A stretch of 64,000 bases of DNA, taken from an uncultured Clostridia bacterium (GTDB lineage Bacteria; Bacillota; Clostridia; TANB77; CAG-508). The DNA lies in contig CAQUBD010000003.1 of NCBI GenBank assembly GCA_948891265.1, positions 9,789 through 73,788 of the forward strand, written 5' to 3'. This document shows, in pieces, positions 1-17,566 of this stretch; the first letter of the stretch is position 1, and each line of letters opens with the position of its first letter. The notes beneath the pieces were generated by a model. It made no database searches. It had not been told where the DNA came from and was given only the letters and a program-made list of their open reading frames with translations. Position numbers and translations under genes: made by a program.

Positions 1-1160
1 TTAGCAATATTTTCTTTTAGACTAGTAATTACACTATTAATTAAACTATCTTCTCTTAAATGGATATTTGAGCAAAATTTACTACCATTTCTTTTATAAG
101 AAGAACAAACGCATCTAAAATATTTTCCATGATTTTTATTATAGGTTATTTTTGATTTACATTTTTTGCATAAAACTAGCCCTTGTAACAAATGAGGAGA
201 AGAAGCGATATAATTCCATTCATTTGATTTTTTATCAAGCATAATTTGAACACTATTAAAAATATTTCTATCAATGATTGGTTCGTGATTGTTTTCAATA
301 ATGATATGTTGCTGTTTTGGTACATCAATAATTTTTTTTGTTTTATAATTTAATTTGCTATACTTGTGTTGTACTAAATCACCAGTATAAATTCTATCTC
401 TAAGAATTTTAGAAATCATGGTTGTACTCCATAAATTTGTTTTGTTATTTGGATTATAATAGTTTGTAGTTTTTCTTTTATAGGCAAGTGGTGTTAGTAT
501 TTTATTGTTATTTAGATATCTACATATTTCAGTTTTATTGTTTCCAGTATAATACATTTCAAATATTTTTTGAACAATAGAAGAAACTTCATAATCTACT
601 AAAATAATATTTTTGTCCTTTTCATCTTTTTTATATCCATAAGGTAAAAAGGATTTTATATTTTGTCCACTAGATGCTTTGGTTAGCAAGCTAGATCTAA
701 CCTTTTTTGAAATATCTTTTGCATACATATCATTAAAAACAGATTTAAATGGTGTCATATCATTATTTGTGTTGTTATTGTCAAATGTATCAATTCCATC
801 ATTTAAAGCAATATATCTTACATTTTTTAATGGAAAGTATTTTTCTAAATAATAACCTGTTTCAATGTAATCTCTGCCAAGTCTTGATAAATCCTTTGTA
901 ATGACTAAATTTACATTACCAAGTTCAATATCATTGATTAAATTTTTAAAATCTGGTCTATTAAAATTTGTACCAGTAAATCCATCATCTACATATATTT
1001 TAAATAAAGTCCAACCTTGACTTTTTATATAATTAATTAGTAACTTTTTTTGTGTATCAATACTTTCAGATTCTTTGTCTTTTTCATCTTCTCTTGAAAG
1101 TCTTGTGTAAATTCCTACTTTAAAATAAGTAGGAGGAAAGTTATAGTTTAACTCTTGCAT
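1..1160 (-). CDS. Large serine recombinase, partial: N-terminal 386 aa, C-terminus lies beyond the left window edge
   Basis: Reverse translation from the ATG at 1160-1158 gives MQELNYNFPPTYFKVGIYTRLSREDEKDKESESI..., i.e. the serine recombinase catalytic motif (Y-x-R-x-S-R-E-D) followed by a resolvase/recombinase domain. An SD-like AGGAGG lies just upstream. The frame runs open to position 1. Confidence 0.8.
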   Translation of the reverse strand, partial: MQELNYNFPPTYFKVGIYTRLSREDEKDKESESIDTQKKLLINYIKSQGWTLFKIYVDDGFTGTNFNRPDFKNLINDIELGNVNLVITKDLSRLGRDYIETGYYLEKYFPLKNVRYIALNDGIDTFDNNNTNNDMTPFKSVFNDMYAKDISKKVRSSLLTKASSGQNIKSFLPYGYKKDEKDKNIILVDYEVSSIVQKIFEMYYTGNNKTEICRYLNNNKILTPLAYKRKTTNYYNPNNKTNLWSTTMISKILRDRIYTGDLVQHKYSKLNYKTKKIIDVPKQQHIIIENNHEPIIDRNIFNSVQIMLDKKSNEWNYIASSPHLLQGLVLCKKCKSKITYNKNHGKYFRCVCSSYKRNGSKFCSNIHLREDSLINSVITSLKENIA

Positions 1161-2822: not shown

Positions 2823-3353
2823 TTATAGTTCATAATCATAAATTTTACAATTTTCATTAATATCTGATGAGTTTCCATTGTCTGGTATTCCATTAAAATA
2901 CCAATAAATCGCTCTTGATATTCCTCCATGTGTAACTAATAAAATATTATCATCACTATTACTTGATTTTAATTCATCTAGAAAATCGGATATCCTTTCA
3001 TATACACTTTTCATAGTTTCTAATTCTGGATATAATCTATCTGAATTATAATTCCAAAATTCATCCCATTTAAGTTGCTTGAAAGGAACTTTTTCATATA
3101 TTCCCATATTTCGTTCTTTTATTCTATTTTCAATTATCACAGGAATATTTTTGTTTAATCCAAATAATTTTAATGTATGTTTCGCTCTTGGTATTGGAGA
3201 ACAAAATATTTTATTGATATTTAACTTTTTAATATCTTTTCCAACTGCTATAGCTTGTTGGATACCTGTTTCATTTAACGGCTCATCTTCAGTTGCTATA
3301 ATTTCATTTTTACCCATATTAGTTTCACCATGTCTAATTACATATAATTTCAT
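2823..3353 (-). CDS. Histidine phosphatase family protein (PGAM-like), tandem paralog of the previous gene
   Basis: MKLYVIRHGETNMGK...CSPIPRAKHT... shows the RHGE motif and the conserved C-terminal His region. Confidence 0.8.
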   Translation of the reverse strand: MKLYVIRHGETNMGKNEIIATEDEPLNETGIQQAIAVGKDIKKLNINKIFCSPIPRAKHTLKLFGLNKNIPVIIENRIKERNMGIYEKVPFKQLKWDEFWNYNSDRLYPELETMKSVYERISDFLDELKSSNSDDNILLVTHGGISRAIYWYFNGIPDNGNSSDINENCKIYDYEL

Positions 3354-3439
3354 TACAAATCTCCTAATTACTTAAATAAATATTAATAGTATGTTATCAT
3401 AAAAAATTCATATCTTCAACAAATTTTTACATTAATTTT

Positions 3440-3700
3440 AATCAGCCACATATCCATATCAAAACCACTAACAATATACACACTTAATTTTGTAAAAATC
3501 CCTTTTCCTGTATCATACCCTTTAAACTCCAAACAACTTTTTTTGAGTTTTTGTTTATTTTTGGCATATTAGAAGCCTGTCAAAATATCCACTTTAAAGA
3601 TATGAAAAAAAGCCCCAAGTGGATATATTAAAGGTATCCATTTGAAGCCCATTTTATATCCACTTTAATAATAAATATGGATATAAAAATTGTATAAACA
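3440..3700. promoter_or_regulatory. Cluster of about six TATCCA(C/T)TT-like motifs, direct and inverted, upstream of the cotJC-like gene
   Basis: atatccatatc (3450), atatccacttt (3589), gtggatatatt (3622, reverse), gtatccatttg (3640), atatccacttt (3656), atggatataaa (3676, reverse). Confidence 0.3.
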
Positions 3701-3754
3701 AAATAGTTCCTCCAAACAAAACGAAAACTGGCCTTGGGAAGGGGGAATGAACTA

Positions 3755-3961
3755 ATGTGGACTTATGATAAAATGTTAGAATATCCAATTAATATAAAAT
3801 GTACAGACCCAAGACTTGCAAAAGTTATTATTTCTCAATATGGAGGGCCTGACGGAGAGCTTGCAGCTTCTTTAAGATATTTATCTCAAAGATTTGGTAT
3901 GCCAGATCAAAAAGCTAAAGCTATTTTAAATGATATTGGTACTGAAGAATTAGTGCCTTGA
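3755..3961 (+). CDS. cotJC: 5' segment (fragment 1 of 3) of a CotJC-like manganese catalase family spore-coat gene, interrupted by intervening element A
   Basis: MWTYDKMLEYPINIKCTDPRLAKVIISQYGGPDGELAASLRYLSQRF...DIGTEEL matches the Mn-catalase/CotJC N-terminus (MWVYEK.LQYPV...QYGGPDGELAAALRYL...DIGTEE). An AAGGGGG RBS sits 7 nt upstream of the ATG at 3755. The tool ORF starts at 3734. Homology ends at DIGTEEL, then VP-stop. Confidence 0.8.
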   Translation: MWTYDKMLEYPINIKCTDPRLAKVIISQYGGPDGELAASLRYLSQRFGMPDQKAKAILNDIGTEELVP

Positions 3962-4120
3962 TGATGTCAATAGCTAAAGACAATATTTACAATTAGCTAT
4001 TGACTGTAAAATGTGGTATTTTGAATTTGCAATTTTATGTAAAATATGCTGTACTTTATATAGCAACTGTAAATTTTTCATTTCAAATCTTGCTGAATAG
4101 CAAGTAGAAAGTGTGACAGT

Positions 4121-4360
4121 ATGATTGATGTTATACCTATAGTAACAGCTTTTGATCAAAAAAGCATTTGTTTTTCTGTTGACATTTTTAGCGAAGGTAA
4201 AGAAGTTGGGAAAGCAAGTGTGATACTTGGTAAAATCGGAAAAGATGAACCAAAAGTGAGATTTTATCAGGCGTACGATATATACATAAATATGTCAAAT
4301 GAAATATATTCAAAAGCTACAGAATCATGCATATATGCATCTAAGGTAATTTGGGGATAG
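4121..4360 (+). CDS. Small hypothetical protein, 79 aa
   Basis: ORF with slightly elevated GC. No recognisable family. Confidence 0.3.
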   Translation: MIDVIPIVTAFDQKSICFSVDIFSEGKEVGKASVILGKIGKDEPKVRFYQAYDIYINMSNEIYSKATESCIYASKVIWG

Positions 4361-4385
4361 TAATATCCCCATTTTTTAATACTAT

Positions 4386-5942
4386 TTATTTTGGTATCTT
4401 TGGATATATATGTAATTCAAAATTAGTTGGGTTAGAATCCTTTTTTATTGCTTTTTCAGTTTTTAAATATGTAACTTTTGCTAGAATACTTTTAAGTAAG
4501 ATGTTTCTATCTTCAGCAGCTTCTAGTTTACAATATAAATCTATAACATTTTCAAGTTTTGGTATCATTATTTCTTTTTCGTTCTGTACTTCTGTACTTT
4601 TTTGCAGTATAGAACTATATTCTTCTAATTTGCTTTCTAAATTTTGAATATTATCTTTTATAGTTTTCGAGCGATTTATAAATTCATCTTTGCTATAAAT
4701 ACCATTTTCTAAAAAGTCATATATTTTATCAAGTTTAGTATTTTCTTTTTCTAATTCTTTTTTGGTAGTAGATATAGACTTTTCAATTATTTTAGTATTT
4801 TCAGTATTTGAATTATCTTTGACTTCATAATCTACTTTGTAATTTTCAAGCCAAATTTTTAATGCTTCAATAATTTTATTTTCAACAATATAAAGTTTAG
4901 AACTTACATTGTCACATTTAGAATTAGAACACATAAGAGTTGCAGGTTTATCAGCTTTTGCATAAGGTCGTCTTTGCATTGGCTTGCCACATTTCTCACA
5001 AAACACTAAACCAACTAATGGATTTTGAATAATATTACTATGTTTAACTTTTGGAGTATTTTGTTTTCGCTTTTCTTGGACTAATTCCCAAGTTTTATTA
5101 TCAATAATAGGCTCATGTAATCCATTATAAATTAAATAGTCTTGATTACGAGGTCTACTTATAATAATATGTCCATTTTTCGTTTTCTTTTTTTGTTTCC
5201 TTCTATTCCAAACAATCTTACCAATATAGGTAGGATTAGAAAGAATATCTTTAACAGAAGAAATAGTCCATTCATTAGAAATTCTAGGTTTTAAATTCAT
5301 ATCATTTAACTGTTTTACAACTGAATTTATAGTGTTACTTTCAAAGGTATATAATCTAAAAATTTCTTTAACAATAGGTGCTTCATCTTGATTTACAGAT
5401 AAAGAATAGCCTTTTGAATCTTTTAGTTTAACTCTATCATATCCAAATGGAGCAATATTGCCAACGAATTTACCTTCAGAAACAGAAATTTCACGACCTC
5501 TTTGTAGACGCCTATTGATTGTCTTATATTCTCTTCTAGACATAAATAAGCCAAATTCAAAATATTCTTCATCAAACTCATTATCTGGGTCATAGGTTTT
5601 AACAGGTGTAATAATTTTTGTATGAGAATATTTAAAAGCCTTTGAAACTCTACCTTGATCAGCAGTATCACCACGAGCAAGTCTTTCTACTTCTACAACT
5701 AAAACACCAGTCCATTTCTCATTTTCAACATCTTTAAGAAGTTTTTGCATTTCTTTTCTTTCACTAATCGTTTCACCACTTACAACTTCTCTATAAATTT
5801 TTGAGATATGTAGGTTTCGTTTTTCAGCTAAAGTAGTTAGAATTTTCTCATGTCTTGCTAAAGTTTCGCCTTCTCCATATTTTTCAGATTCTATATCTTC
5901 TCTTGATTTTCTTAAATATATTGCATATGTGCCATCTTGCAC
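4386..5942 (-). CDS. Large serine recombinase, 518 aa
   Basis: N-terminus AIYLRKSREDIESEKYGEG... (S-R-E-D catalytic motif). It also has a recombinase domain, a Cys-containing zinc-ribbon region (CEKCGKPM...CSNSKC) and a coiled-coil C-terminus. Confidence 0.9.
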   Translation of the reverse strand: MQDGTYAIYLRKSREDIESEKYGEGETLARHEKILTTLAEKRNLHISKIYREVVSGETISERKEMQKLLKDVENEKWTGVLVVEVERLARGDTADQGRVSKAFKYSHTKIITPVKTYDPDNEFDEEYFEFGLFMSRREYKTINRRLQRGREISVSEGKFVGNIAPFGYDRVKLKDSKGYSLSVNQDEAPIVKEIFRLYTFESNTINSVVKQLNDMNLKPRISNEWTISSVKDILSNPTYIGKIVWNRRKQKKKTKNGHIIISRPRNQDYLIYNGLHEPIIDNKTWELVQEKRKQNTPKVKHSNIIQNPLVGLVFCEKCGKPMQRRPYAKADKPATLMCSNSKCDNVSSKLYIVENKIIEALKIWLENYKVDYEVKDNSNTENTKIIEKSISTTKKELEKENTKLDKIYDFLENGIYSKDEFINRSKTIKDNIQNLESKLEEYSSILQKSTEVQNEKEIMIPKLENVIDLYCKLEAAEDRNILLKSILAKVTYLKTEKAIKKDSNPTNFELHIYPKIPK

Positions 5943-6005
5943 ATTTCCTCCTTTCCTTGTAATTTGTCTTTAACTTAGCCTTATTATATCTGTAATTGCA
6001 ACAAA

Positions 6006-6149
6006 TTACAACAAAGAAGGATTTATTTTTTTTATTAAATTAACAATAACATTATCTATATATTCTTTTTGATTAGTCGTATTTTCTACAATATAATCAT
6101 CATAAAATTTTACTTTAGTATTTTCTAATATGTATTCTTCTAATAACAT
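6006..6149 (-). CDS. Small ORF (47 aa) immediately upstream of the recombinase; candidate accessory factor
   Basis: An AAGAGG RBS precedes the internal ATG. The tool ORF runs 6006..6218. No homology recognised. Confidence 0.25.
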   Translation of the reverse strand: MLLEEYILENTKVKFYDDYIVENTTNQKEYIDNVIVNLIKKINPSLL

Positions 6150-6354
6150 ATAAATCGCCTCTTTAAAATTTATGAAAAAAATATAAAAAAATACCCAAGA
6201 CAAACTTGTCTTGAGCAAATTTATATTTTTTCTATGATAGCATTATATGATGGGCAATTTATAAAATCAATTCCCTTTTATTTCCCTTTTTTCTAAATTA
6301 GTTAGTAATAGAAATAAGATTTATTTAAATAAGATAAAAGTAGAAAATAAATTC

Positions 6355-6383
6355 TTGCAAATACGATAATTTTATGTTAATAT
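6355..6383 (+). promoter_or_regulatory. Sigma-A-like promoter candidate for the radical SAM gene
   Basis: ttgcaa, then 17 nt, then taatat, about 50 nt upstream of the ATG at 6435. Confidence 0.3.
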
Positions 6384-6434
6384 TAATATTAGTTTAAAGT
6401 TAGCAAAAAATAAAAATAGAAAGGATATGATTAT

Positions 6435-7352
6435 ATGAATTCTAAATATGTTGCTATTGCAGTTACTACTGAATGTAACTTGAAATGTCCATATTGCCAA
6501 AGTACAGGAGAAAGTATTCCAAATGTGCAAGGTATGTGGGATTATAACCGGTTAAGAGAAGTTATAACAGCTTTTTTAGAAGTTGGTTATAGGAATTTTA
6601 GAATTACAGGTGGAGAACCTACCACAGTTCCATATTTAGGAGAATTATTAGATTTTCTTCTACAAGATTCTGATGTGAAAGTACGAATAAATACCAATGG
6701 TTGTGATATAGAAAAATATGTAGACCATTTAAGCTCGCAAACAGAAGTAATATTTAGTGTAGATGGATTAAAAAATGTTTTTTTTCCTAAAAGGTTAACA
6801 GATGAGTTACTAAGGAAAATACAATATTTGCAGTCAAAAAACATTTCAATAAGACTAAACTGTGTAGTTACAAAACACAATTCCAATGAAATACTTGAAT
6901 TAATACAATTTTGTTCTAAAGAAGGATTGAATTTAAAATTGCTTGATTTGTCTCCTAGAACAGACTATCAGGGAAAAATTCAGAATGATTTTTGGAATAA
7001 TAACTACTTTGGATTAAACAAATTGTGTATTCCTTTTCCTAAGGTTGCTTCGGAATTTAGAACCAGTATGATAAAAAAGGGAACAGGAATACCTATGAGT
7101 GGATATAGTTTAGGAAACGGACATTGGCTACAAATAAAGGATTCTAGTAAGAAACCTTATTATGCTTTAGTATGTAAGTATTGTCCTTATAAAGATAATT
7201 GTATAGAAGGTGTATTTTCTCTTTCATTATCTGTTGGTGAAATTTTAAGAGTAGCCAATTGTGTTAATCAAAATTATTGGATAAAACTTAGAGGTTTGAA
7301 TCAAAGACAAATTGAAGAAGAACTAAAGAAAATGGAAAAAATCTTTTTTTAA
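6435..7352 (+). CDS. Radical SAM protein (MoaA-like core with a C-terminal Cys cluster), function unknown
   Basis: CNLKCPYC (Cx3Cx2C) and the FRITGGEPT glycine-rich SAM motif. C-terminal CKYCPYKDNC...C resembles a twitch/SPASM-like auxiliary cluster. Confidence 0.85.
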   Translation: MNSKYVAIAVTTECNLKCPYCQSTGESIPNVQGMWDYNRLREVITAFLEVGYRNFRITGGEPTTVPYLGELLDFLLQDSDVKVRINTNGCDIEKYVDHLSSQTEVIFSVDGLKNVFFPKRLTDELLRKIQYLQSKNISIRLNCVVTKHNSNEILELIQFCSKEGLNLKLLDLSPRTDYQGKIQNDFWNNNYFGLNKLCIPFPKVASEFRTSMIKKGTGIPMSGYSLGNGHWLQIKDSSKKPYYALVCKYCPYKDNCIEGVFSLSLSVGEILRVANCVNQNYWIKLRGLNQRQIEEELKKMEKIFF

Positions 7353-7372
7353 GTAATAATTAAAAAACAAAA

Positions 7373-7397
7373 AGCGAGGGAAACCTCGTTTTTTCTA
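7373..7397 (+). terminator. Rho-independent terminator after the radical SAM gene
   Basis: gcgagggaaacctcg hairpin followed by tttttt. Confidence 0.55.
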
Positions 7398-8104
7398 AAT
7401 TATTTAAAAAACTTAGAATTTATAATAATATTAGAAATAGAAAATTATTATAATTTTACAAAAATTTGAATCTATAAAGAGTGATTTAATCCGTTATAAC
7501 AATTCTAATGTGCTTTATAAAATCAAGTCAAGGTTAAAATGAATGTGCTATCGCACAACCTTGACTTAATTTTATAAGCACATTGTCTTTTCAGTTAAGA
7601 GGATTTAAGGATAAGTATATTTAATTAAGTAGACATAAGTACATTTCAAGAGCAAAATACCTCATTAGAAATGAGGGCAGGAAAGAGAGTGTTCACACAT
7701 CGCTTATACACATTGAAGGACAAGCCTTCAAGAGTTAATAAAAGAACAAAAATTTTAAGCAGATATGATGTAGAAATTCACTGGGTGAACTGGTTCAAAC
7801 CCGCTATTCTTCGTTGAAATTGGAAATAGTGAACTAAAAAATTAAAAAAGTTCACTCATTTTAGGCAAAAGTTCACCAAGTGTACTAAAAAATTTTCTGA
7901 AATTTTGTAAAACAGTTACCGAGGAATCCTCGATAACTAGTTATAATAATACAAATTACAAAAATTTTAAGCTTGTTCCAAAATGGAACAAGCTCACTTT
8001 GTGTACTTAGTATTTGTGAAAATTTGTTAAAAAGTATTGATTTTGCAAATAAAATAACTTATAATGAATATAATAGTAGTGGATATTTAATATCTACTAT
8101 AATT

Positions 8105-8227
8105 AAAAATGTGAGTCGCAACCCTATTTGCGTCGAATAAATGGATAGGTGAAAAAATGTGAACCGCAACCCTGCTTGCGAGATATAAATGTGCAGGTGG
8201 AAAAATGTTAATTATAGTAAAATGTGG
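8105..8227 (+). ncRNA. Candidate type III antitoxin RNA (ToxI-like): 2 full and 1 partial tandem repeat of ~47-49 nt
   Basis: R1 is 8105-8151 and R2 is 8152-8200; each begins AAAAATGTGA. R1-R2 identity is about 80%, with compensatory changes cctat...atagg (R1) versus cctgc...gcagg (R2) that preserve a stem. A partial third unit (8201-8227) repeats the AAAAATGT boundary motif. Placement is promoter-like region, then repeats, then terminator, then toxin gene. Confidence 0.6.
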
Positions 8228-8260
8228 GGTCTATAAAATTAATTTAGATCCCATATTTTC
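8227..8260 (+). terminator. Terminator between the repeat array and the toxin gene, as in toxIN-type loci
   Basis: Stem gggtcta/tagatcc (7 bp, one G-U pair) followed by cauauuuuc. Confidence 0.45.
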
Positions 8261-8280
8261 ATAAAAGGAGTTAAATAATA

Positions 8281-8757
8281 ATGATAATAGAAGATGGAAA
8301 ATTTTATTTTATAAAAGATGAGTTTTTTGATATATTTAAAGATTATAAATTGATGGAAAACAAAGAATGCGGAAATAAAAGACCTTGCTACTTTTGCTTT
8401 AGAGATAGAAAAAACAAAGAAATAATATGGTTTGTTCCAATATCGACTAAATATGATAAATATAAAAAGATATATGATAATAAAAAATTAAAAATTGGAA
8501 ATAAACCAGTATATAATTTTGTTTTTGGTAATGTATTAGGTAAAAAAGCTGTATTTTTAATACAAAATATATTTCCAACAACAGAAGAATATATATTAGA
8601 GAAATATACAAATTCAAATATAGATGTAGAAATACCTACAGTAGTAAAAAATGAAATTATAACTACTGCATTAAGAGTTGTGAGACTTGCAGAAGAAGGC
8701 ATACATATTCCATTTTATAATATTGTTGAAATGAGAAATATTTTGTTAAAAGAATAA
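8281..8757 (+). CDS. ToxN/AbiQ-family type III toxin (endoribonuclease) candidate, 158 aa
   Basis: KFYFIKDEFFDIFKDYK...KRPCYFCF...WFVPISTKYDK follows the ToxN/AbiQ pattern (FY.I...Y...L..FD....RP..G......YFAPLSSPK). Size ~160-170 aa, AGGAG RBS. Confidence 0.6.
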   Translation: MIIEDGKFYFIKDEFFDIFKDYKLMENKECGNKRPCYFCFRDRKNKEIIWFVPISTKYDKYKKIYDNKKLKIGNKPVYNFVFGNVLGKKAVFLIQNIFPTTEEYILEKYTNSNIDVEIPTVVKNEIITTALRVVRLAEEGIHIPFYNIVEMRNILLKE

Positions 8758-8772
8758 AGAATAAAAAATATC

Positions 8773-8797
8773 ATATGTGCAGAAATTGCACATATGG
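8773..8797. repeat. Perfect 10-bp palindrome catatgtgca-gaaatt-tgcacatatg downstream of the toxin gene
   Basis: Inverted repeat seen directly. An A-run precedes it on the + strand, so it would act as a terminator only for the minus strand. Confidence 0.4.
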
Positions 8798-8962
8798 GCA
8801 ATAATAAAAAACAACAGTAAATTATAAGTTATAATAATTTAAAACGAAAATAAACTTAATCCGTTCACTTAGTGTACTAGTTTAATGCACCAAGTGAACT
8901 TATTTAAATTTATAGTATTTTACAGCCAATAGTACTAGATTTTTTGTAATTGACATCATCAT

Positions 8963-9085
8963 GGTACTGAAGAATTAGCACACTTAGAAATGGTTGGAAC
9001 AATAGTACACCAATTAACAAAAAATGCATCAATAGAAGAAATTGAAAAAGCGGGATTAAGTGCATATTATACAGATCATGGGGTG
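8963..9085 (+). CDS. cotJC: Middle segment (fragment 2 of 3) of the CotJC-like Mn-catalase gene
   Basis: GTEELAHLEMVGTIVHQLTKNASIEEIEKAGLSAYYTDHGV matches the central Mn-catalase region (DIGTEELAHLEMIATMVYKLTKDATPEQLREAGL..HY.DHG). The frame runs into a stop at 9092 after leaving homology. Confidence 0.75.
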
Positions 9086-9134
9086 GGTTTGTAATATCTC
9101 CTAATCCTGCTTTTTATTTTTTACTAATATAAAA

Positions 9135-9968
9135 TTAATTATCATTTTCAAATAATTCTTTAATATATAATTCTCTATTTTTAAGTTCATTGTTTTTACC
9201 TTGTAATAAATTCTCAAAAAACATTACTAAATAATCAAATGTAGGATAAATTCCTTTTGGAATATTTCCATAGTTACTTCTAACTAGTGCATTTCTAAAA
9301 TATAAGCTTTTATCTTTAAACATATCATTATTAACATTAAATCCCATATTATTAAGATATTTTTCAATAAATACTGCTGTAGTTCTAGTATTTCCTTCTC
9401 CAAATGGATGTACTTGCCAAATGCTTGAAGTGAATTTTGAAATATGTTTAATTAATTCATCATTATTTAGTTTTGAATAATCAAATTCTTTTTCTTCTTT
9501 AAAATCATAATCAAAATAGCTTTCTATATCTTGATAATTTACATATTTAACGGTATGGCCATTTAGGATGTTCTCTTTTTTGGTAATATTATAATTCCTA
9601 TAATTACCTGCAAAATCATAAATATCTTTAAATAGGTATTTATGAATATTCTTTAAAGTAATAGGACTAAAACCAAAGCTCTTATCTTCTAAAAGCTGTG
9701 CTATTCTTAAAGATACTAAATCGCATTCTTTTTCTTTTTGAATATTTATATCATTATGATTTTGTGTTTCATAATATGTTTTTAATAAGTTTTCTACTTC
9801 GTAATATTTTAATTCTCCATTAATATTTTTTTCAGATAAGTCTAATAAATATTTAGAAGGCTTTAAATTATCAACTTTATTTAATCCAATACCCGTATTC
9901 CAATATTCTTGTTTTTTTGTAGTATCAGTTATTTCATTTTCAATTATATAATTTTCTTCATTAGACAT
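9135..9968 (-). CDS. Fic/DOC family protein (putative AMPylator / toxin-like)
   Basis: HPFGEGNTRTTAVF matches the Fic motif HPFx(D/E)GNGR with one substitution. Length 277 aa. Confidence 0.8.
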   Translation of the reverse strand: MSNEENYIIENEITDTTKKQEYWNTGIGLNKVDNLKPSKYLLDLSEKNINGELKYYEVENLLKTYYETQNHNDINIQKEKECDLVSLRIAQLLEDKSFGFSPITLKNIHKYLFKDIYDFAGNYRNYNITKKENILNGHTVKYVNYQDIESYFDYDFKEEKEFDYSKLNNDELIKHISKFTSSIWQVHPFGEGNTRTTAVFIEKYLNNMGFNVNNDMFKDKSLYFRNALVRSNYGNIPKGIYPTFDYLVMFFENLLQGKNNELKNRELYIKELFENDN

Positions 9969-10045
9969 ATAAAAACCTCCTAAAATTTCTCTTTTTCATA
10001 CCTTAATATTATACCATAAAATGCCTAAACTTACTATAGTTTTGC

Positions 10046-11674
10046 CTAAAAATTCCAATGAATTACAACATCTTGAGTTTTAGTCTTTTTGTCTGCTCTG
10101 CAAATTTCATCTGTAACAGGCAAAGCCTTAACAGCTGAAAATTTTTCTCCAATTTCAATATAATCTATAAAGCTATTAACAATATCATAATTAAGTTCTT
10201 TAAAATCTTTAAAGTGATTAATTATTTTCTCTTTTTGTTCTTTTATAAATTTACTGTTTAATTCTTTTTCCTTTAAATTAGATAAATCATTTTCGACTTT
10301 TATTAGTTCTTTTTGCTTTGCTGATTTATCAGATAAAAAAGAGGAGTTTAAATCTTCAAATACATCTTCTGGAACTTTGCCACTTACTTTGTTTAAGTAA
10401 AGTTCTTTTATAGCTTTATTAATGCTTTCCATATCTTTAGATAAAGTTTCTTTTTTGTTTTCTAGTAATTTGGATTTATTTATGTTGTCATTTGAAACAA
10501 ATAACTCATCAGAAATATTATCAAAGTCATAAAATGCTAAAATTTTCTCTTTAATTTTTTCTGTTACTAAATTTTTAAGATTTTCATAGCCAATAGAATG
10601 TGTAGTGCAAGTTCCATATAACTTTCTAGAGCCTTTACAAGAAAAATAAATGTAACCTCTATCATTTTTGCATTTATAAAGTTTTGTTCCACAATCTAAA
10701 CATACTAGCTTATTAGCAAATATATGAACTTCGCCATTTTTACATCTTCTTGTTTTATTTTTAAAGATTTCTTGAACTTTATAAAATTGTTCTTTAGTAA
10801 TAATAGGTTCGTGAGTATTTTCTACAATAATCCATTCTGATTTAGGCTGATTTACCATTTTTTTAGATTTATAGCTTACTTTTTTATTATAACCTTGTAC
10901 CAAATTACCAATATAAACTTCATTTTTCAGTATTTTACTGACTGTAGATTCACACCAATAGTCAATATTTTTGCCTTGATTTCTAAAATTAATTCCTTGT
11001 GACTGTTTATATTTAGTTGGTGTTAAAATACCTTTGTCGTTTAATATTTGAGCAATTTTAGTAACACCATTTCCTTGTTCATAAAGGTTAAAAATCAATT
11101 TAATAACATCGGCTACTTCTGTATCAATAACAAGTTTATTTTTATTCTCTGGACTTCTTTTATATCCATAGCACACAAAAGAGCCAATATGTAATCCTTG
11201 TTTTCTTTTACTATCAAATGTTTTTCTAATATTTTCTGATAAATCCTCTAAATACCACTCATTAACTAAACCATTGATTTGTCTTGATTTCTTATTTCCT
11301 TTATCTAATGTATCAACATGATCTACAAGGCTAACAAATCTAATATTCCACTCGATAAATTTATTGTGTAGGTATTTTTCAACTATTTCCATATCACGAG
11401 TAAATCTACTTTGTGTTTTACAAAGTACAATATCAAATTTATGGCTTTTAGCATCTTCTAATAATTTATTAAATTCAGGTCGTTCACTGTCGATTCCAGA
11501 ATAGTCCTCATCACAGTAAATGTTATAAATATCCCAGCTCCTTTCTATTGCATAATTGATTAGCATAGATTTTTGATTTTGGATACTTTCGCTTTCATCG
11601 TTTTCGTGTAGTTTGTCATCATCTTCACGAGAAAGCCTACAATAAATTGCCACTCTCATAAGTTTACCCTCCAA
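10046..11674 (-). CDS. Large serine recombinase, 542 aa
   Basis: MRVAIYCRLSREDD... catalytic motif, a recombinase domain, a Cys zinc-ribbon (CLDCGTKLYKC...C) and a coiled-coil C-terminal region. Confidence 0.9.
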   Translation of the reverse strand: MEGKLMRVAIYCRLSREDDDKLHENDESESIQNQKSMLINYAIERSWDIYNIYCDEDYSGIDSERPEFNKLLEDAKSHKFDIVLCKTQSRFTRDMEIVEKYLHNKFIEWNIRFVSLVDHVDTLDKGNKKSRQINGLVNEWYLEDLSENIRKTFDSKRKQGLHIGSFVCYGYKRSPENKNKLVIDTEVADVIKLIFNLYEQGNGVTKIAQILNDKGILTPTKYKQSQGINFRNQGKNIDYWCESTVSKILKNEVYIGNLVQGYNKKVSYKSKKMVNQPKSEWIIVENTHEPIITKEQFYKVQEIFKNKTRRCKNGEVHIFANKLVCLDCGTKLYKCKNDRGYIYFSCKGSRKLYGTCTTHSIGYENLKNLVTEKIKEKILAFYDFDNISDELFVSNDNINKSKLLENKKETLSKDMESINKAIKELYLNKVSGKVPEDVFEDLNSSFLSDKSAKQKELIKVENDLSNLKEKELNSKFIKEQKEKIINHFKDFKELNYDIVNSFIDYIEIGEKFSAVKALPVTDEICRADKKTKTQDVVIHWNF

Positions 11675-11724
11675 TCGGTAAACTACTCATTTTGTACAAC
11701 CCCATTATACAATAACAAGTAGTT

Positions 11725-11853
11725 TTAATCAACGCTCTTTGCAAATTCATTTATAATTAATTTATTAACAATATTATTTATATATTTTATAATATCATCT
11801 ATATTTTCATATTTGTTCTTTTCAATAACATTAAAATTAACTTTTTCGCACAT
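11725..11853 (-). CDS. Small ORF (42 aa) upstream of the recombinase; candidate excision/directionality factor or regulator
   Basis: Strong GGAGGAAC RBS 5 nt before the ATG; MCEKVNFNVIEKNKYENIDDIIKYINNIVNKLIINEFAKSVD. No homology recognised. Confidence 0.3.
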   Translation of the reverse strand: MCEKVNFNVIEKNKYENIDDIIKYINNIVNKLIINEFAKSVD

Positions 11854-12058
11854 AACAGGTTCCTCCTTTTAGCAAGAGCTCCCATACTCCTGCTATTAAT
11901 TCATATTCAAAAGGGCTTGTATTTGTGCTAAAAAGCAAAAAAATAAAGCCCTTTTACAATCTTGGCTTTAAAATAAAAATATATTTAATTAACATATGTT
12001 TTTCCTCATTTCTTACTATATAAAAACAAAATTTTATTAAAAATCTAATAAAATCTTG

Positions 12059-12526
12059 TTACCTACTAAAACAACATACATGTTTATATTTTTGTATTGG
12101 TACTTTGATATTCATATTTATAGTTTTTGGAATATCAAATCCGACTTTTAATTTTCTATCTATTACTAAATTTCCTTTACTATTTGTATGATAAGAACTT
12201 GAATTCCATTTTGCAAAAGCATAGTCTGACATAATATTAGTAGTATAAGATAATTCTATTGCATCTTGTTTTTGCTGTGATATCATTTGTTCATAACTGT
12301 TGTCATCTTTCTTTGGTCTGTCATAAGTTTTAAGATATTCTTGTAAATAAACTTTTCTATTTTTAGCATTTGTTTTTTTACGAGTTTCCTTTTCTTGTTT
12401 GTTTCTATTGTCAGCTTTTACAACCTTTGAAACATAAGGACAGCTTTTTCCAACTATTTTAGCAATTTCATTTTGTTTTAGATGGTCATTATAATATAAG
12501 TTTAAAATCTGTTCTTTAGTATTCAA
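12059..12526 (-). CDS. Helix-turn-helix DNA-binding protein (sigma-70 region-4-like HTH at the N-terminus)
   Basis: LKQNEIAKIVGKSCPYVSKVV is a typical HTH. The long basic tail is uncharacterised. Confidence 0.55.
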   Translation of the reverse strand: MNTKEQILNLYYNDHLKQNEIAKIVGKSCPYVSKVVKADNRNKQEKETRKKTNAKNRKVYLQEYLKTYDRPKKDDNSYEQMISQQKQDAIELSYTTNIMSDYAFAKWNSSSYHTNSKGNLVIDRKLKVGFDIPKTINMNIKVPIQKYKHVCCFSR

Positions 12527-12585
12527 TTTTTCTTTTTCCTCCTTTGGTTAACTTTTTGTTTGCAAGATTTTAAATACAATTCGCC

Positions 12586-12614
12586 TATTGACATTTGTTA
12601 TTAATTGTTGTATT
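12586..12614 (+). promoter_or_regulatory. Sigma-A-like promoter candidate
   Basis: ttgaca, then 17 nt, then tattat, in the divergent intergenic region upstream of 12744. Confidence 0.35.
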
Positions 12615-12743
12615 ATTATATTGTAAAAAATCTTACATAATAATTTCATATTGTTATTATACGATTATAATTTATATTTGTCAATACAATTTTAAACATT
12701 TTATTAAAATTTTTTACAAAACAAAAAACGAAGGAGATAAAAA

Positions 12744-13877
12744 ATGAGAGAATTACCTCGCCATCTTGTTTTAGAAGATTTCTATATATGGTTTAATATG
12801 AAAGATAAAGAAGAATATTATGCAACACCATTATATTTATATAATGTATTAAGAAAAGATACAGACAAAGAAAATGATGAAGAAAAAAAGAAAGATGAAA
12901 CAAGAGTATATTTAGAGTTAGAAAAGGATATTTCAAAAACAAAATTAAATAAGAAAAAAGAAGTTATTAGACAACCTTCAACTATTTATATTCATTATGC
13001 AGAAAGCATAGGCTCATTGTTAATAAATTTTTTAAATGCTGACTTTTCATCTTTTCAATCTGCTTATAATACATTTTTTTATGCCTATGGTTTTGAATTA
13101 ATAAAAGAATATACACCTTACATATATTCAAAAACTGATGAGTGTATAACAGATGTAGAATTTATGAAAATGTTAGAAGATATTTATAACACAAGCCTAG
13201 ATGATTTATTAGAATGGCAAGATAATTTCAAGAAATGTGTAGATTTTGTATATAACTTAAATGGAAATGAAGAATTAAAAGAATATAATACATATTCAAA
13301 ATTTGTTGCTTATACAATTAAACACAACGAACTTTATACATATTCACAAGATGTAGAGGTTATATTAGATAATTATATAAATATACACAACCATCATCAC
13401 AATGAAAGTATAGAATATTTAATAAAAGGTATTGAAGATAAAAATCCAAATTTAGAATTACACAATGTTTATACAAGTACAAAATTGAGAAGTATTTGTT
13501 TTACTATATTAGATCAACTTGTAAGACAAGAAAATCTATCAATTAAAACTTGCCAAATTTGTGGTAGATATTTCATACCAACCTTTAGACAAAATGAAAT
13601 TTATTGTGATTTGAAAAATGTTGATGGTACACCAACTTGTAGAGATAAGGGAGCAAGTGAAACTTATAAAAAGAGTCTTAAAAGTAATCCAGCATTATTA
13701 CTTTATAGAAGAACATATCAGCAAAAGGTTATGACAGTATATAGAAACAAAGAAAATAAGCAATTAAAGAAAGATTTTGACAAATGGAAAAAAGAAGCAC
13801 AAGAAAAAATTAAATTATTCAAAAAAGGCAAACTAGATGAAGATACTTTGTATAATTGGATGATTGAAAATAAATAG
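12744..13877 (+). CDS. Hypothetical protein (377 aa) with a C-terminal Cys cluster; possible TnpY-like accessory protein
   Basis: C-terminal CQICGRYF...YCDL...PTCRDKG zinc-ribbon-like cluster. No family confidently recognised. Confidence 0.55.
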   Translation: MRELPRHLVLEDFYIWFNMKDKEEYYATPLYLYNVLRKDTDKENDEEKKKDETRVYLELEKDISKTKLNKKKEVIRQPSTIYIHYAESIGSLLINFLNADFSSFQSAYNTFFYAYGFELIKEYTPYIYSKTDECITDVEFMKMLEDIYNTSLDDLLEWQDNFKKCVDFVYNLNGNEELKEYNTYSKFVAYTIKHNELYTYSQDVEVILDNYINIHNHHHNESIEYLIKGIEDKNPNLELHNVYTSTKLRSICFTILDQLVRQENLSIKTCQICGRYFIPTFRQNEIYCDLKNVDGTPTCRDKGASETYKKSLKSNPALLLYRRTYQQKVMTVYRNKENKQLKKDFDKWKKEAQEKIKLFKKGKLDEDTLYNWMIENK

Positions 13878-13881
13878 AAAT

Positions 13882-13916
13882 AAATCCCTAAGTAAATTAA
13901 CTACTATAGGGATTTA
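13882..13916. terminator. Bidirectional terminator hairpin between convergent genes
   Basis: aaatcccta...tagggattt, a 9-bp perfect stem. Confidence 0.45.
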
Positions 13917-13939
13917 TTTCGTATGTGAGGAATCAATTA

Positions 13940-14293
13940 TTACTTATACTTTTTATTATTTCTTTCGTCATTTTTCTTTGCATCTATTGCCAGCATAACA
14001 ATGCCTATCATAGATAGAACGGCAATAGGCGCAGCTACATAAGGTTCCATCCAACCTTTTGTACTGCTTATAATTGAACACGCACATATAACACAGAGAA
14101 GAAAAAATAATAAGAAAAAATGAGTGACTGATATGAATTTATCATACAAGTTTGATTCCTCTGATTTTCTTACAAATTGTTCAAGAGCTTTATCTTCAAA
14201 AGGTTCTGACCGCTCTTGTTCTTCTAACATCTGTTGAAATTCTTCTTCTGACATTTCTAGAGCTTTTTTTACTGTCATTCTCTTGTCATCCAT
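13940..14293 (-). CDS. Hypothetical membrane protein (two C-terminal TM helices), higher GC
   Basis: Hydrophobic segments FFLLFFLLCVICACSII and APIAVLSMIGIVMLAI. Confidence 0.45.
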   Translation of the reverse strand: MDDKRMTVKKALEMSEEEFQQMLEEQERSEPFEDKALEQFVRKSEESNLYDKFISVTHFFLLFFLLCVICACSIISSTKGWMEPYVAAPIAVLSMIGIVMLAIDAKKNDERNNKKYK

Positions 14294-14483
14294 AAAATTT
14301 ACCTCCTATTATTATGTTGGAATTTTCCATTACATTGTCAATTATATCAAAAAATTCTCTAAAATATTTGTATTTTACATAAAAATATGATAAACTATTA
14401 AATATAAAATTTTATAATCTCCTTTTGGAGTTTATCATAGATAACAAGTAAACAGCACAATTAATATTGGAGGAGGTAAACAT

Positions 14484-14882
14484 ATGAAAGTAAAAACAGA
14501 ATATGTATCTATAACTCAGGCAGAAAGGATATTCGAAGTTATAAAGCAATCATTAAGCGTTACAAAGGATATTCAAATTTTTGTAGCAGAAGAATTGATT
14601 AAAGAATTACGGAGAAATGGCGTAGAACACCATGTTTATGAATTTAACGGAATGGGTTGTCATCATTATAATAAAGATGATGATGGTTTTGGAGGAGAAA
14701 CTTGGTATGGATATCATAAAGAACATGCTTTTTCACCTGTAATATCTTCAGCAAGCTTTATTTCCAATTGTAAAGGTTATTATCAGTTAGTAGAATTTCC
14801 AAATAAGAAAGTTCCAAGTGATTATTTACACTATGCAGTGGGATTTAAGGAATTGTTATTGATTGAAGTAGATACAATCTAA
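14484..14882 (+). CDS. Hypothetical protein, higher GC
   Basis: ORF preceded by a GGAGGAGG RBS. No family recognised. Confidence 0.5.
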   Translation: MKVKTEYVSITQAERIFEVIKQSLSVTKDIQIFVAEELIKELRRNGVEHHVYEFNGMGCHHYNKDDDGFGGETWYGYHKEHAFSPVISSASFISNCKGYYQLVEFPNKKVPSDYLHYAVGFKELLLIEVDTI

Positions 14883-14924
14883 AAAAGAGTAGCTTGTAAA
14901 CACATTTGTTAAGGAGGTACCAAA

Positions 14925-15116
14925 ATGGCGAATGAAAGAAATGTAGATTTAATGAACAATTTCGACAAGAGAAATGTTGAAAGTATTGACAAGCATATTA
15001 GAGAAGATGAACTTCCCCAAGAAGTATATGGAATGCTTGTTGATGAATCTGGACACGGAAAAGTCAAAGTATCAGAAGAAAGCAGAAAAATTTGTGCAAA
15101 AAATCTTTTGAAATGA
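14925..15116 (+). CDS. Small hypothetical protein, 63 aa
   Basis: AAGGAGG RBS. A terminator hairpin (aatgagag...ctctcatt, 15140-15175) follows. Confidence 0.4.
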   Translation: MANERNVDLMNNFDKRNVESIDKHIREDELPQEVYGMLVDESGHGKVKVSEESRKICAKNLLK

Positions 15117-15192
15117 TTTTTAAATTTCAAATCGCTAATGGAATGAGAGCCTATATGGACTCTCATTTCATTTCTACGATTTATATCTTATA

Positions 15193-16371
15193 TCAAATTT
15201 CTAAATCCCACTCTTTTTCTCTTTCTTCATGTTCAAGTTGTTTTACTGGATCAATAAATGTATGAGTGTCTTCTTCAAATTTTTTAACTAATTCTTTTGA
15301 TTCGCCAATACCAAATTTATGGCAAATCCAAACTATAAATTTATCAACAGTTTCATAGAATTTATCTATAATTTTGTGTAAATGACTATTTTCCTTTTCT
15401 AAACTTTTAATTTTACTTTTATATTTCCATTCAATATCAAATTCTTTTTCCTTATATTCTGCTTTAATATTGTTTACTTGATTATGAAGTTCTTTATTAT
15501 CAGCAAGTATAGAGTTTCTTTCTTTTTGATATTTTTCAGCTACATTAACTAAATTTACCTGTTTGGATAGTTCATTATGCAATTTTAAATTTTCTTGATA
15601 CAATTCCATAATTTTATCATCTTTTGGCTTAATAATTTCGTTTTCTACTTTTTCTCTATTAAGTTTTATTAGTTTAATATCATTTATATCTGGAGTTTCG
15701 GGTAATTCTAGTTTTATATTATCTAAAATCTTTTTAGTGTTTTCAAAATTAGTCAATTTCTTTAAATCCTCAATTTTTTCGTGTTTTGCACCAGTTTCTT
15801 CTACTGGTAAACCTCGCTCTAAATCAAACCCTTTTGAAGTTATATATTTGTGAAAAGCATTTTGTAGTTGTCTGTAACTATCTCTGCCTTTCCAAAAATC
15901 TCTACAGCATATTTTATCAATGTCATTTCCTTCTTTATCTTTTGTATGGATTACTGGTATATACACTAAATGCATGTGTGGAGTGGTTTCATCTAAATGT
16001 ACTGCTGCTGATACAATATACTTTTCTTCAAGATTATTATAATTACATACAAATTTATAACTTTCTTTAAAATATCTTTTAGTTTCTTCTAAACCAATCT
16101 TATTAAAAAAAGCATTATCAGAAGTAATCATTATTTCACACATGATATTACTATTACTTCTAATAGTGCCTTTTAAATCATATTCCTTTTTCATTTTATC
16201 AAATTCTTTTATATAAGTTAATTCGTTTTTCTTACACCAAAAATTGAGATGTGTTCTTGTAGGATCAATATCTTTATTAGAATGACCTTTTGACCTTCTA
16301 TCATTGTGAATGTATGATCCTTGTGCATCCACTCTTGTTAATTTATCATTTCTTATAATAGCATAGCTCAT
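15193..16371 (-). CDS. mob: MobV-family (Pre/Mob, pMV158 MobM-like) mobilization relaxase
   Basis: N-terminus MSYAIIRNDKLTR...HNDR...HSNKDIDPTRTHLN and HLDETTPHMHLVYIP (HxDE...PHxH) match MobM motifs. The coiled-coil C-terminus is typical of the family. Confidence 0.85.
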   Translation of the reverse strand: MSYAIIRNDKLTRVDAQGSYIHNDRRSKGHSNKDIDPTRTHLNFWCKKNELTYIKEFDKMKKEYDLKGTIRSNSNIMCEIMITSDNAFFNKIGLEETKRYFKESYKFVCNYNNLEEKYIVSAAVHLDETTPHMHLVYIPVIHTKDKEGNDIDKICCRDFWKGRDSYRQLQNAFHKYITSKGFDLERGLPVEETGAKHEKIEDLKKLTNFENTKKILDNIKLELPETPDINDIKLIKLNREKVENEIIKPKDDKIMELYQENLKLHNELSKQVNLVNVAEKYQKERNSILADNKELHNQVNNIKAEYKEKEFDIEWKYKSKIKSLEKENSHLHKIIDKFYETVDKFIVWICHKFGIGESKELVKKFEEDTHTFIDPVKQLEHEEREKEWDLEI

Positions 16372-16389
16372 ATCTTCTTTGAACCTCCT

Positions 16390-16560
16390 TCTTTGCTCAA
16401 GATATTCTTTGAATGTCTAACATACTAGACAAACAAGTTTGTCCCGTATGGCAGGGTTTAGCAACCCTACAACCCAAACCTAAAAATTGCTACTCGCATT
16501 TTTAGATTATTTCATAAAAAATGCTTATCGCAATTTTTATGAAATATGAGCAAAAAAATA
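16390..16560. promoter_or_regulatory. Candidate oriT / mob promoter region
   Basis: Inverted repeats gacaaac-aa-gtttgtc (16420-16437), agggtt-tagc-aaccct (16445-16460) and tcataaaaa...tttttatga (16510-16545), immediately upstream of the relaxase gene. Confidence 0.3.
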
Positions 16561-17242
16561 AATTTTTTTACTCATTTCACTTTAGCAACTATCAAGCAGA
16601 AGCCAGAGGGAGAGAGATAAAGTGAATTAGGTGTAATAATCCCATTTGTGAAAAATAGAATTATTACACCTATATAAGTTGAAACCGTCGGTCGTTCGCC
16701 TCGTTTCATAGGTAGTCTAGTAAGTAGTGATATTACTACTATAATTGCTGATGCTTAGGCTGTTAAACTTTTAGTTGTTACAGCCTAAGTATGCAAAATA
16801 ATTGAAAATTATTTTGTATTACCTTACATCTTTGTTCATACTTGCCCAAACTTTTTACAATTACAAATCCATATCAAATATGCCACCGAATACTCTTTTA
16901 TTATTGTGAGTCTGTGTTCTAAAATCTCACTCACGCACTTTGTATAATTAGACTGCTTATACTAATACGCGCATACTTTATAGCATCGGCTTGCTAAACC
17001 AAGAACTTTTATAGAGGTTCTGCATATCTCTTGCAATAAAAAAAGACATCTGTAACTTTTGCATTACAAATGACTTTCTTATTTAATATTTAATTATCTT
17101 TGTCCTCACAATCGATTTTAAGCAGAATAAAATTGTAAGGTAATAAATAATGCCTACAAAAAAATGTAGGCATAAAACTTCTTGTACAAAATAAGTAGTT
17201 ACATATATATTTTCTTTTAGGATAGATAACAAACACACACCA

Positions 17243-17566
17243 CACGGTGTAGATGTATACCCATCATCAGCAGCAGGAGTACCATTTACAGCAGCATATA
17301 TAGCATGTAAAGGAGATCCAATAGCAAATCTACAGGAAGACTTAGCAGCAGAGCAAAAAGCCAGAGCAACTTATGAAAAATTAATAAACTTATGTAGAGA
17401 TAATCCAGATGTAGTAGATCCACTTCGTTTCTTAAGAGAAAGAGAAGTAGTACACTTCCAAAGATTTGGAGAAGCATTAAGAGGAGTACAAGACAAATTA
17501 GCTGAAAAGAAGTTTTATATGAATGACATGAAACCTTATACAAATGATTGTGGATGTAATAAATAA
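17243..17566 (+). CDS. cotJC: 3' segment (fragment 3 of 3) of the CotJC-like Mn-catalase gene
   Basis: HGVDVYPSSAAGVPFTAAYIACKGDPIANLQEDLAAEQKARATYEKLINLCRDNPDVVDPLRFLREREVVHFQRFGEAL... matches the Mn-catalase C-terminal half (NAAGVPFTAAYIQAKGDP...AAEEKARATY...DPLRFLREREIVH.QRF). Stop at 17564-17566. Confidence 0.8.
   Translation, partial: HGVDVYPSSAAGVPFTAAYIACKGDPIANLQEDLAAEQKARATYEKLINLCRDNPDVVDPLRFLREREVVHFQRFGEALRGVQDKLAEKKFYMNDMKPYTNDCGCNK

Follow-up and report, generated by a model that had tools for sequence, protein, structure and literature searches.

A SprA-like serine recombinase element with predicted attachment sites in the split cotJC gene of an uncultured Clostridia bacterium

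Intervening elements and the interrupted cotJC gene

SPbeta, a prophage that intervenes in the sporulation gene spsM of Bacillus subtilis, is moved by the large serine recombinase SprA together with SprB (PMC4191935, PMC5499854). The attachment (att) sites used by SprA have a 16-bp core common to all four, perfect inverted arms, an attP of ~52 bp and exchange at a central dinucleotide (PMC5499854). Here we describe element A, a 5,025-bp integrated element that splits the gene cotJC in a 64,000-nucleotide stretch of DNA, hereafter the window, from an uncultured Clostridia bacterium (assembly GCA_948891265.1, contig CAQUBD010000003.1, positions 9,789 to 73,788 of the forward strand). Among recombinases of solved structure SprA is the closest to that of element A, and the two systems also share the design of their att sites, a target gene for the spore envelope, which for element A is assumed to be expressed in the mother cell, and a small acidic recombination directionality factor (RDF), which for element A is a candidate. 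They differ in the gene that is interrupted (spsM against cotJC), in the central dinucleotide (AA against a predicted GA) and in the position of the symmetry axis, which in element A lies off the middle of the repeat. SPbeta is moreover a 134-kb active prophage, whereas element A is 5 kb in length and has no phage genes, and the candidate RDF of element A is unrelated in sequence to SprB and lies directly upstream of the recombinase.

Other described systems match in other respects. The gin element of Bacillus cereus gerE, with GirC and GirX (PMC5595907), is like element A in being a non-prophage element whose short core (9 bp in gin) is enclosed by an imperfect inverted repeat, and in its very small RDF (6.5 kDa in gin, a candidate in element A); it is unlike element A in its size (28.6 kb), its three recombinases and its target gene, and its excision has been proven experimentally, whereas element A is known from sequence. 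The clostridial elements skinCd (CD1231/CD1234) in sigK of Clostridioides difficile (PMC5025042) and yin in yabG of Clostridium botulinum (PMC10747680) combine a serine recombinase with a small acidic RDF that is transcribed from a mother-cell promoter, and have 12-14-bp repeats with flanking inverted repeats at attL and attR; the recombinase, the candidate RDF and the repeat with its inverted arms have counterparts in element A. Their target genes and recombinase subfamilies are different, and their promoter has been mapped, whereas that of element A is inferred from a CATA-type box. The gene cotJC itself stands among the intervened genes listed by Abe et al. 2013, as cited in bioRxiv 10.1101/2021.11.22.469490, and a skin-like element is carried by cotJC of Laceyella sacchari (bioRxiv 10.1101/2022.02.25.481979). 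In the passages of these sources that concern them, the earlier interruptions have the same target gene and recombinase-bearing elements, lie in Bacilli and are mentioned in passing, with no att sites, family survey or double interruption described.

Element A appears to be an instance of this known design (SPbeta/spsM, gin/gerE, skinCd/sigK, yin/yabG), in which a short core lies within imperfect inverted repeats, one end carries a serine recombinase, the RDF is very small and the target is a spore-envelope gene. Clostridial large serine recombinases are also found in the transposons Tn4451 and Tn5397 (TnpX and TndX), which exchange at GA, form circular intermediates and use several target sites; to our knowledge these transposons need no RDF. 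Set against the general description of those several target sites, the family of element A occupies a single cotJC codon in ~20 genomes.

The product of cotJC is a manganese catalase of the CotJC family. In the window its open reading frame (ORF) is distributed over three pieces:

3755..3953, plus strand: cotJC fragment 1, codons 1-66, the N-terminus; the frame runs to a stop at 3959-3961 inside element A
8963..9078, plus strand: cotJC fragment 2, codons 62-100
17245..17566, plus strand: cotJC fragment 3, through the stop codon

When one copy of the repeat that bounds element A is deleted together with the intervening 5,008 bp, a continuous frame results (...NDIGTEELAHLEMVG...), so that precise excision rebuilds the gene across this junction in silico. 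The frame resumed at 8963 stops again at ~9090 and continues at ~17245, and the gene is thus interrupted by two elements, A and B. The fully reconstructed CotJC of 206 aa is 93-94% identical, at 100% coverage, to intact proteins of 205-209 aa.

Relatives were surveyed by scanning one genome per species, which gave 34 loci. The intact cotJC DNA of relatives is colinear with the window over both junctions, and three of them (L009-L011) hold the exact 16-mer GGTACTGAAGAATTAG once, with the sequence GATATAGGTACTGAAGAATTAGCTCACTTAGAA around this single core; the attB that had been predicted in the preliminary description is thus present in nature. At L009 the upstream context is 96% identical, and three collinear blocks make up the alignment of the locus with the window; the one core (L009 3184-3199) pairs with both repeat copies, and 5 nt (3298-3302) pair with both ends of element B. 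Such a pattern marks L009 as a syntenic locus whose site is empty. The attB of element A very probably lies in the stretch of cotJC that encodes its conserved GTEELAH motif.

Attachment sites and the point of strand exchange

The sites at the two ends of element A are laid out as follows:

3923..3972, plus strand: attL, ~50 bp, comprising host half-site B (3923-3947) and element half-site P' (3948-3972), from symmetry and family comparison
8948..8997, plus strand: attR, ~50 bp, comprising element half-site P (8948-8972) and host half-site B' (8973-8997)
3937..3953, plus strand: direct repeat copy 1, 17 bp, TGGTACTGAAGAATTAG
8962..8978, plus strand: direct repeat copy 2, 17 bp; the predicted central GA is 8972-8973
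3945..3949, plus strand: AAGAA, the minimal attL/attR core across the family; the predicted central dinucleotide GA is 3947-3948
3959..3971, plus strand: P' (left) arm, TGATGATGTCAAT, a perfect inverted repeat of 8949-8961
8949..8961, plus strand: P (right) arm, ATTGACATCATCA

The preliminary description reported a 16-bp direct repeat at 3938-3953 and 8963-8978, inside the cotJC frame. These positions are correct, and a frame check of both copies places them within cotJC, exactly at the break points of the split gene; the length is not, since the match continues one base to the left of the 16-mer and the exact repeat is 17 bp (3937-3953 and 8962-8978). The 16-mer occurs nowhere else in the window, even with up to two mismatches, against 0.02 occurrences expected. 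Repeated 16-mers are nevertheless frequent in this AT-rich DNA (123 in the window, at 26% GC), and the 17-bp repeat by itself is thus weak evidence. The arms are more telling. Just inside the repeat copies lie 13-nt sequences that are perfect inverted repeats of each other, as had been reported; the right arm was placed correctly at 8949-8961 and the left one, given as 3961-3973, was misplaced by 2 nt and lies at 3959-3971. Pairs of 40-nt segments drawn at random from the window show a perfect inverted repeat of 13 nt in only ~1.5 of 10,000 trials.

When the right end of the element is joined to the left one, the result is an attP of ~50 bp that is dyad-symmetric, 19 of 24 half-site positions matching between the 24-nt halves ATTGACATCATCATGGTACTGAAG and ATTGACATCATCAAGGCACTAATT, with the axis between 3947 and 3948. 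The 13-nt arms are the outer portion of these ~24-nt half-sites, for which the consensus is ATTGACAnCATCAtGGnAC.... The attB half-sites of the window are far less symmetric, with 9 of 20 positions matching; weak symmetry of attB is usual for large serine recombinases. After excision the predicted junctions would read GATATTGGTACTGAAGAATTAGCACACTTAGAA (attB) and CATCATCATGGTACTGAAGAATTAGTGCCTTGATGATG (attP). The geometry originally proposed, an attP of P arm, core and P' arm recombined with an attB inside the gene, is borne out by the restored frame, the empty sites, the dyad-symmetric attP and the intact recombinase. We judge it very probable that 3923-3972 and 8948-8997 are attL and attR of an element moved by a serine recombinase.

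How narrowly the crossover can be placed depends on the relatives. The recombinase family is very large and tight, with hundreds of 90%-identity clusters (88-94% identity), and some 20 of the 34 loci are from uncultured gut Clostridium/Clostridia genomes with recombinases 75-96% identical. In every locus that includes the flanks, the break in cotJC falls at the same codon, 62-67. A repeat was found in every carrier compared, where its absence had been named as an observation that would speak against the proposal; its length varies from 5 to 17 bp. Within single genomes the identity of attL and attR is thus narrower than in the window: L016 shares GAAGAATTAG, L020 and L023 share GAAGAAT, and L018 has only AAGAA (for L027 the attL register was read by eye). 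These shared stretches intersect at positions 8-12, window 3945-3949, implying that exchange takes place within AAGAA, a placement that we hold with high confidence. Comparison suggests that the 17-bp repeat is merely a stretch where attP and attB happen to match in this genome, and that function requires identity over far fewer than 16 bp. The arms set the outer limit of the site at ~26 nt from the centre, since P arm ATTGACAWCATCAT and P' arm ATGATGWTGTCAAT are conserved in lineages where the adjoining cargo has been swapped.

Eight attPs could be reconstructed, from family members with both junctions, and in all eight the symmetry axis is unique, falling at position 10|11 with 17-20 of 25 matches compared with at most 11 elsewhere. 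This axis makes GA (3947-3948 and 8972-8973) the predicted central dinucleotide, in agreement with the preliminary description, which had placed the crossover near these positions. We consider GA itself the probable point of exchange, less firmly than its confinement to AAGAA. The competing possibility is that the sites are right and the exchange uses a neighbouring pair in AAGAA, such as AA: comparison confines the exchange only to the five bases, and SprA, the closest characterised enzyme, strongly favours a central AA (PMC5499854). The axis, however, falls exactly at G|A in the eight attPs and in a phage attP described below, with no competing axis. Cleavage by large serine recombinases is symmetric about the dyad, and an exchange elsewhere in AAGAA is in our view rather improbable.

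Beyond the ~50-bp attP is an outer inverted repeat, 8917-8932 against 3997-4012 (ATTTTACAGCCAATAG against the reverse complement ATTTTACAGTCAATAG, 15 of 16 matching). Its two halves are at unequal distances of 40-65 nt from the crossover and are kept in the closest relatives; they could be a site for an accessory factor, or could fold into a structure that exists only once the element has been excised as a circle.

Recombinase operon and the case for excision

The genes to which excision would be due lie on the minus strand of element A:

4386..5942, minus strand: large serine recombinase A, 518 aa, SprA-like, with Resolvase, Recombinase and Zn-ribbon domains and the catalytic sequence YLRKSRED
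6006..6149, minus strand: 47-aa acidic ORF (MLLEEYILENTK...), directly upstream of the recombinase; candidate directionality factor
6150..6197, minus strand: conserved block GGTATTTTTTTAT-N8-CATAAAT-N-AAAGAGG; possible sigma E/K-type promoter and ribosome-binding site

Recombinase A has all three domains expected of its class (PF00239, E=3.8e-14; PF07508, E=3.9e-24; PF13408, E=1.4e-6) and aligns end to end with SprA (YokA) of SPbeta (PDB 9dxh; E=1.5e-46, residues 9-510), its catalytic serine motif (YLRxSRxD) reading YLRKSRED where SprA has YLRRSRQD. A recombinase identical to it is present in the samples SRR13102923, SRR13102929 and SRR26912633. Only two genes are kept across the family, the recombinase and the small ORF directly upstream of it. 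For the latter, conservation and a good ribosome-binding site indicate a start at an internal ATG, giving 47 aa, and independent gene callers give 45-47 aa. Its position and its co-conservation with the recombinase make it the best RDF candidate, and we regard the case for and against this role as evenly balanced. The block upstream of the ORF is kept in nearly all relatives, the small ORF and a CATA-type box preceding the recombinase in ~20 genomes, and the CATAAAT(T) box resembles the clostridial sigma E/K -10 boxes CATATTAT/CATATAAT (consensus from PMC3789822). Sporulation control of the recombinase operon is plausible on these grounds. An attempt to decide between sigma E and sigma K was dropped, the -10-like box being compatible with either factor and the -35 a clean match to neither.

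Full ORFs could be rebuilt from each of the eight split cotJC genes examined. The ratios of non-synonymous to synonymous substitution rates (dN/dS) are 0.05-0.23 between pairs of split genes and similar, ~0.04-0.05, between split and intact ones, and the recombinase, at 0.08-0.2, is likewise under purifying selection. The constraint on the split genes fits a gene that is reconstituted and used. Long residence with strict vertical inheritance, considered on the basis of co-divergence, was abandoned: the dS of the recombinase is consistently the lower, and its correlation with that of cotJC is r=0.5.

We propose that element A is moved by its own SprA-like recombinase, an attP having recombined with the attB in cotJC, with the strands exchanged at a central pair of bases that is predicted to be GA. 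During sporulation, recombinase A and the 47-aa protein, the latter as directionality factor, would excise the element as a circle in the mother cell; cotJC would be restored there and the spore genome would retain element A. The unrelated element B would also have to leave before complete CotJC could be made. As a whole, a SprA-like element with these att sites and an inferred excision in the mother cell is likely to be the best explanation of the locus. For the link between excision and sporulation, which draws on the analogy with skin, SPbeta, gin and yin, we lean towards acceptance with much less assurance.

Several results weigh against this proposal. A degenerate attP pattern requiring both arms had no match in IMG/VR or in JGI metagenomes, no attP-like junction was present in any of the 51 loci fetched, and neither the exact reconstituted CotJC nor a version with only element A removed occurs in a collection of 15 billion proteins. 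Contigs of ~5 kb in Logan that carry recombinases of the family (L046-L048) are integrated fragments and not circles. We take the missing excised form as absence of evidence and not as counter-evidence, because assemblies are ill suited to detecting something that is present in terminal mother cells alone. Synonymous divergence is lower for the recombinase (0.43-1.0) than for cotJC (0.8-1.6), with a correlation of only r=0.5, making some lateral movement of the elements likely, and the purifying selection on cotJC may be partly older than the insertion. The cotJC of this genome has no adjacent cotJA or cotJB (3354-3754) and is preceded by a histidine-phosphatase gene, as is that of L009 (2600-3001), and its expression in the mother cell is consequently assumed; in most relatives with element A the split gene follows cotJA and cotJB in a full cotJA-cotJB-cotJC operon, and a CotJC protein identical to that of L009 occurs beside cotJA/B in L010. 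In C. difficile, cotCB and cotD depend on sigma K, whereas cotG, which also encodes a manganese catalase, depends on sigma G (PMC3789822). For the 47-aa ORF there was no Pfam or PHROG match and, with a 19-sequence profile, no PDB match to SprB/YotN; RDFs typically have no detectable sequence relatives (PMC5025042). The -35 of the putative sporulation promoter is ambiguous, and upstream of the operon there is also a near-consensus sigma-A-type promoter (TTGATT-17-TATAAT, 6270..6242, minus strand), followed after ~25 nt by an intrinsic terminator hairpin (6217..6192, minus strand), an arrangement kept in close relatives; the two could specify a small RNA or an attenuator of recombinase expression.

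In a different reading the att sites are real and element A is a small integrative mobile element carrying defence functions, for which the conserved cotJC motif is simply a landing pad; it would excise only now and then, or in connection with transfer, and carriers would do without this CotJC. Its cargo is defence- or addiction-like (a CptIN toxin with a repeat array, and a radical SAM protein), the low dS of the recombinase suggests horizontal movement, the nearest relatives of the recombinase are temperate-phage integrases, the operon has its sigma-A-like promoter, the excised form was not found in the databases and loci scanned, and C. difficile can form its coat without catalases of the CotJC family (PMC11222575). 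Against a landing pad stand the intact frames of all eight split genes, with the constraint described above, and the small ORF and CATA-type box ahead of the recombinase in ~20 genomes, and all characterised elements of such design in mother-cell genes excise in sporulation (PMC4191935, PMC5595907, PMC5025042, PMC10747680). We judge this reading unlikely, but it is the strongest competitor to excision in the mother cell.

A decaying remnant, unable to excise and flanked by fossil att sites, could be suspected from the 5-kb size, the lack of phage structural genes and the unobserved excision products; the recombinase is nevertheless full length, has kept its catalytic motif and is under purifying selection, and both half-sites are conserved across the family while neighbouring cargo is replaced, so that we think a remnant very unlikely. 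An origin of the repeat as a chance match, or as the target-site duplication of a transposase, has in its favour the 123 repeated 16-mers of the window. Against this stand its location at both break points of the gene, the restoration of the frame, the arms (p ~1.5e-4), a repeat length of 5-17 bp among relatives that is unlike a duplication of fixed length, and a domain scan that detected no transposase. Frame restoration, empty sites, varying repeat length and the shared axis together refute it, and its probability is negligible.

Neighbouring elements, cargo and phage origin

Further features of element A, and of element B downstream, are:

6435..7352, plus strand: radical SAM protein, 305 aa, MoaA/viperin-like, below all curated family cutoffs
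8105..8208, plus strand: 48-nt x 2.2 tandem repeat upstream of the toxin, likely to specify the antitoxin RNA in a type III toxin-antitoxin system
8281..8757, plus strand: CptIN-family type III toxin (NF047359, 159 bits against a cutoff of 90)
9079..17244, no strand assigned: element B, 8,166 bp, which interrupts cotJC again, 125 bp downstream of element A
9135-9968, minus strand: Fic protein of element B, matching the candidate defence family PDC-S72
10046-11674, minus strand: serine recombinase of element B (LSR-B), unrelated, 23-25% identical to recombinase A
15193-16371, minus strand: MobV relaxase of element B

The cargo of element A is variable, the radical SAM gene being found among relatives only in the closest one, L014. 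The 48-nt repeat array ends 73 nt upstream of the CptIN gene, and the cargo appears to include a type III toxin-antitoxin system. A scan of elements A and B with Rfam at E<=0.1 gave no match, so that the antitoxin RNA is assigned from its architecture only.

Element B has 25-nt inverted arms (9080-9104 and 17217-17241, 20 of 25 matching) with the dyad axis on a shared CA (9077-78 and 17243-44), which leaves only 2 bp of identity at the crossover. With its relaxase it appears to be a mobilizable recombinase element. In L014, where the cargo of element A is 98-100% identical, a B-like element with other cargo occupies the same second site.

Some further observations concern recombinases and repeats in the vicinity. 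A third large serine recombinase gene (1-1160, minus strand) is cut by the start of the window and encodes 516 aa in L001 (5128-6678), so that at least three such genes lie within 12 kb of this genome region. A 17-mer, TATATCCACTTTAATAA, is present at 1590-1606 and 3655-3671, upstream of the ORF at 1709-2200 and upstream of cotJC. It was considered as marking the att sites of a third element and dropped, its flanks being unrelated, and its repetition is probably due to chance or to a regulatory motif common to the two places. In three loci the recombinase lies at the attR end and on the same strand as cotJC, an internal order opposite to that in the window: L041 (8001-10051), L030 (5200-10540) and L038 (8001-10000), with recombinases 89%, 63% and 45% identical, respectively. 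Both arrangements also occur in free phages, MT835739 as against phiIBB_Pl23.

The closest phage integrases are 48% identical to recombinase A. One belongs to Paenibacillus phage phiIBB_Pl23 (NC_021865), a complete 41-kb temperate phage with the site ATTGATAACACCATGGTACAGAAG|AGTATGAACC... / ATTGATAACACCATGGTACAGAAG|AGTATGAACCATCGGGATATCAGTAAT 19 nt past the integrase stop. There inverted arms enclose a cotJC-like GTEE core, and the dyad axis again falls at G|A; 39 of 60 positions match the window attP, the best of 13,030 positions in that locus, and 16 of the 18 specified positions of the left half-site fit the family consensus. The phage thus resembles element A in its integrase, in its attP core (GGTACAGAAG|AG) and in the placement and orientation of the site relative to the integrase 3' end; it differs in being a whole phage and in having no homologue of the 47-aa ORF. 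The faecal phage MT835739 has a similar site, with a core resembling the attR of the Muricoprocola locus L038. The integrase of Clostridium phage PhiS63, a functional sigK-intervening phage (PMC3442830), is 41% identical to recombinase A. These phage attP sites and the PhiS63 integrase point to descent of the family from temperate-phage integrases that target sporulation genes.

A limited literature search found no earlier description of the family, of its minimal, cargo-swapping form or of a double interruption. What may be new is a widespread clostridial family, a minimal size with exchangeable defence cargo, and two interruptions of one small gene. More tentatively, cotJC may be closed by two locks, with A and B, 125 bp apart in a coding region of 621 bp, both having to excise in the mother cell. 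In this picture element A would be one of a very numerous group of minimal intervening elements in gut Clostridia, which would have arisen from temperate phages targeting cotJC, have retained only the recombinase with a 47-aa RDF, and exchange their defence cargo; excision in a terminal cell would make the chromosomal niche cost-free. Such a scheme is possible and somewhat doubtful.

The established picture of how intervening elements work is unchanged by these results. They add a well-defined case to the sporulation genes that are reconstituted by site-specific recombination, with att sites narrowed to 5 bp by comparison alone, and provide a compact pair of recombinase and candidate RDF with defined 50-bp sites; SprA-like recombinases with defined sites are of practical interest for genome engineering. 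Two independent elements in one small gene are unusual, and could be used for studying coordinated excision. Small defence cargo, such as a type III toxin-antitoxin system or a radical SAM protein, travels on elements of this kind. Since the family is abundant in animal-gut Clostridia, annotation is affected, and the split cotJC is likely to be called a pseudogene or a set of fragments.

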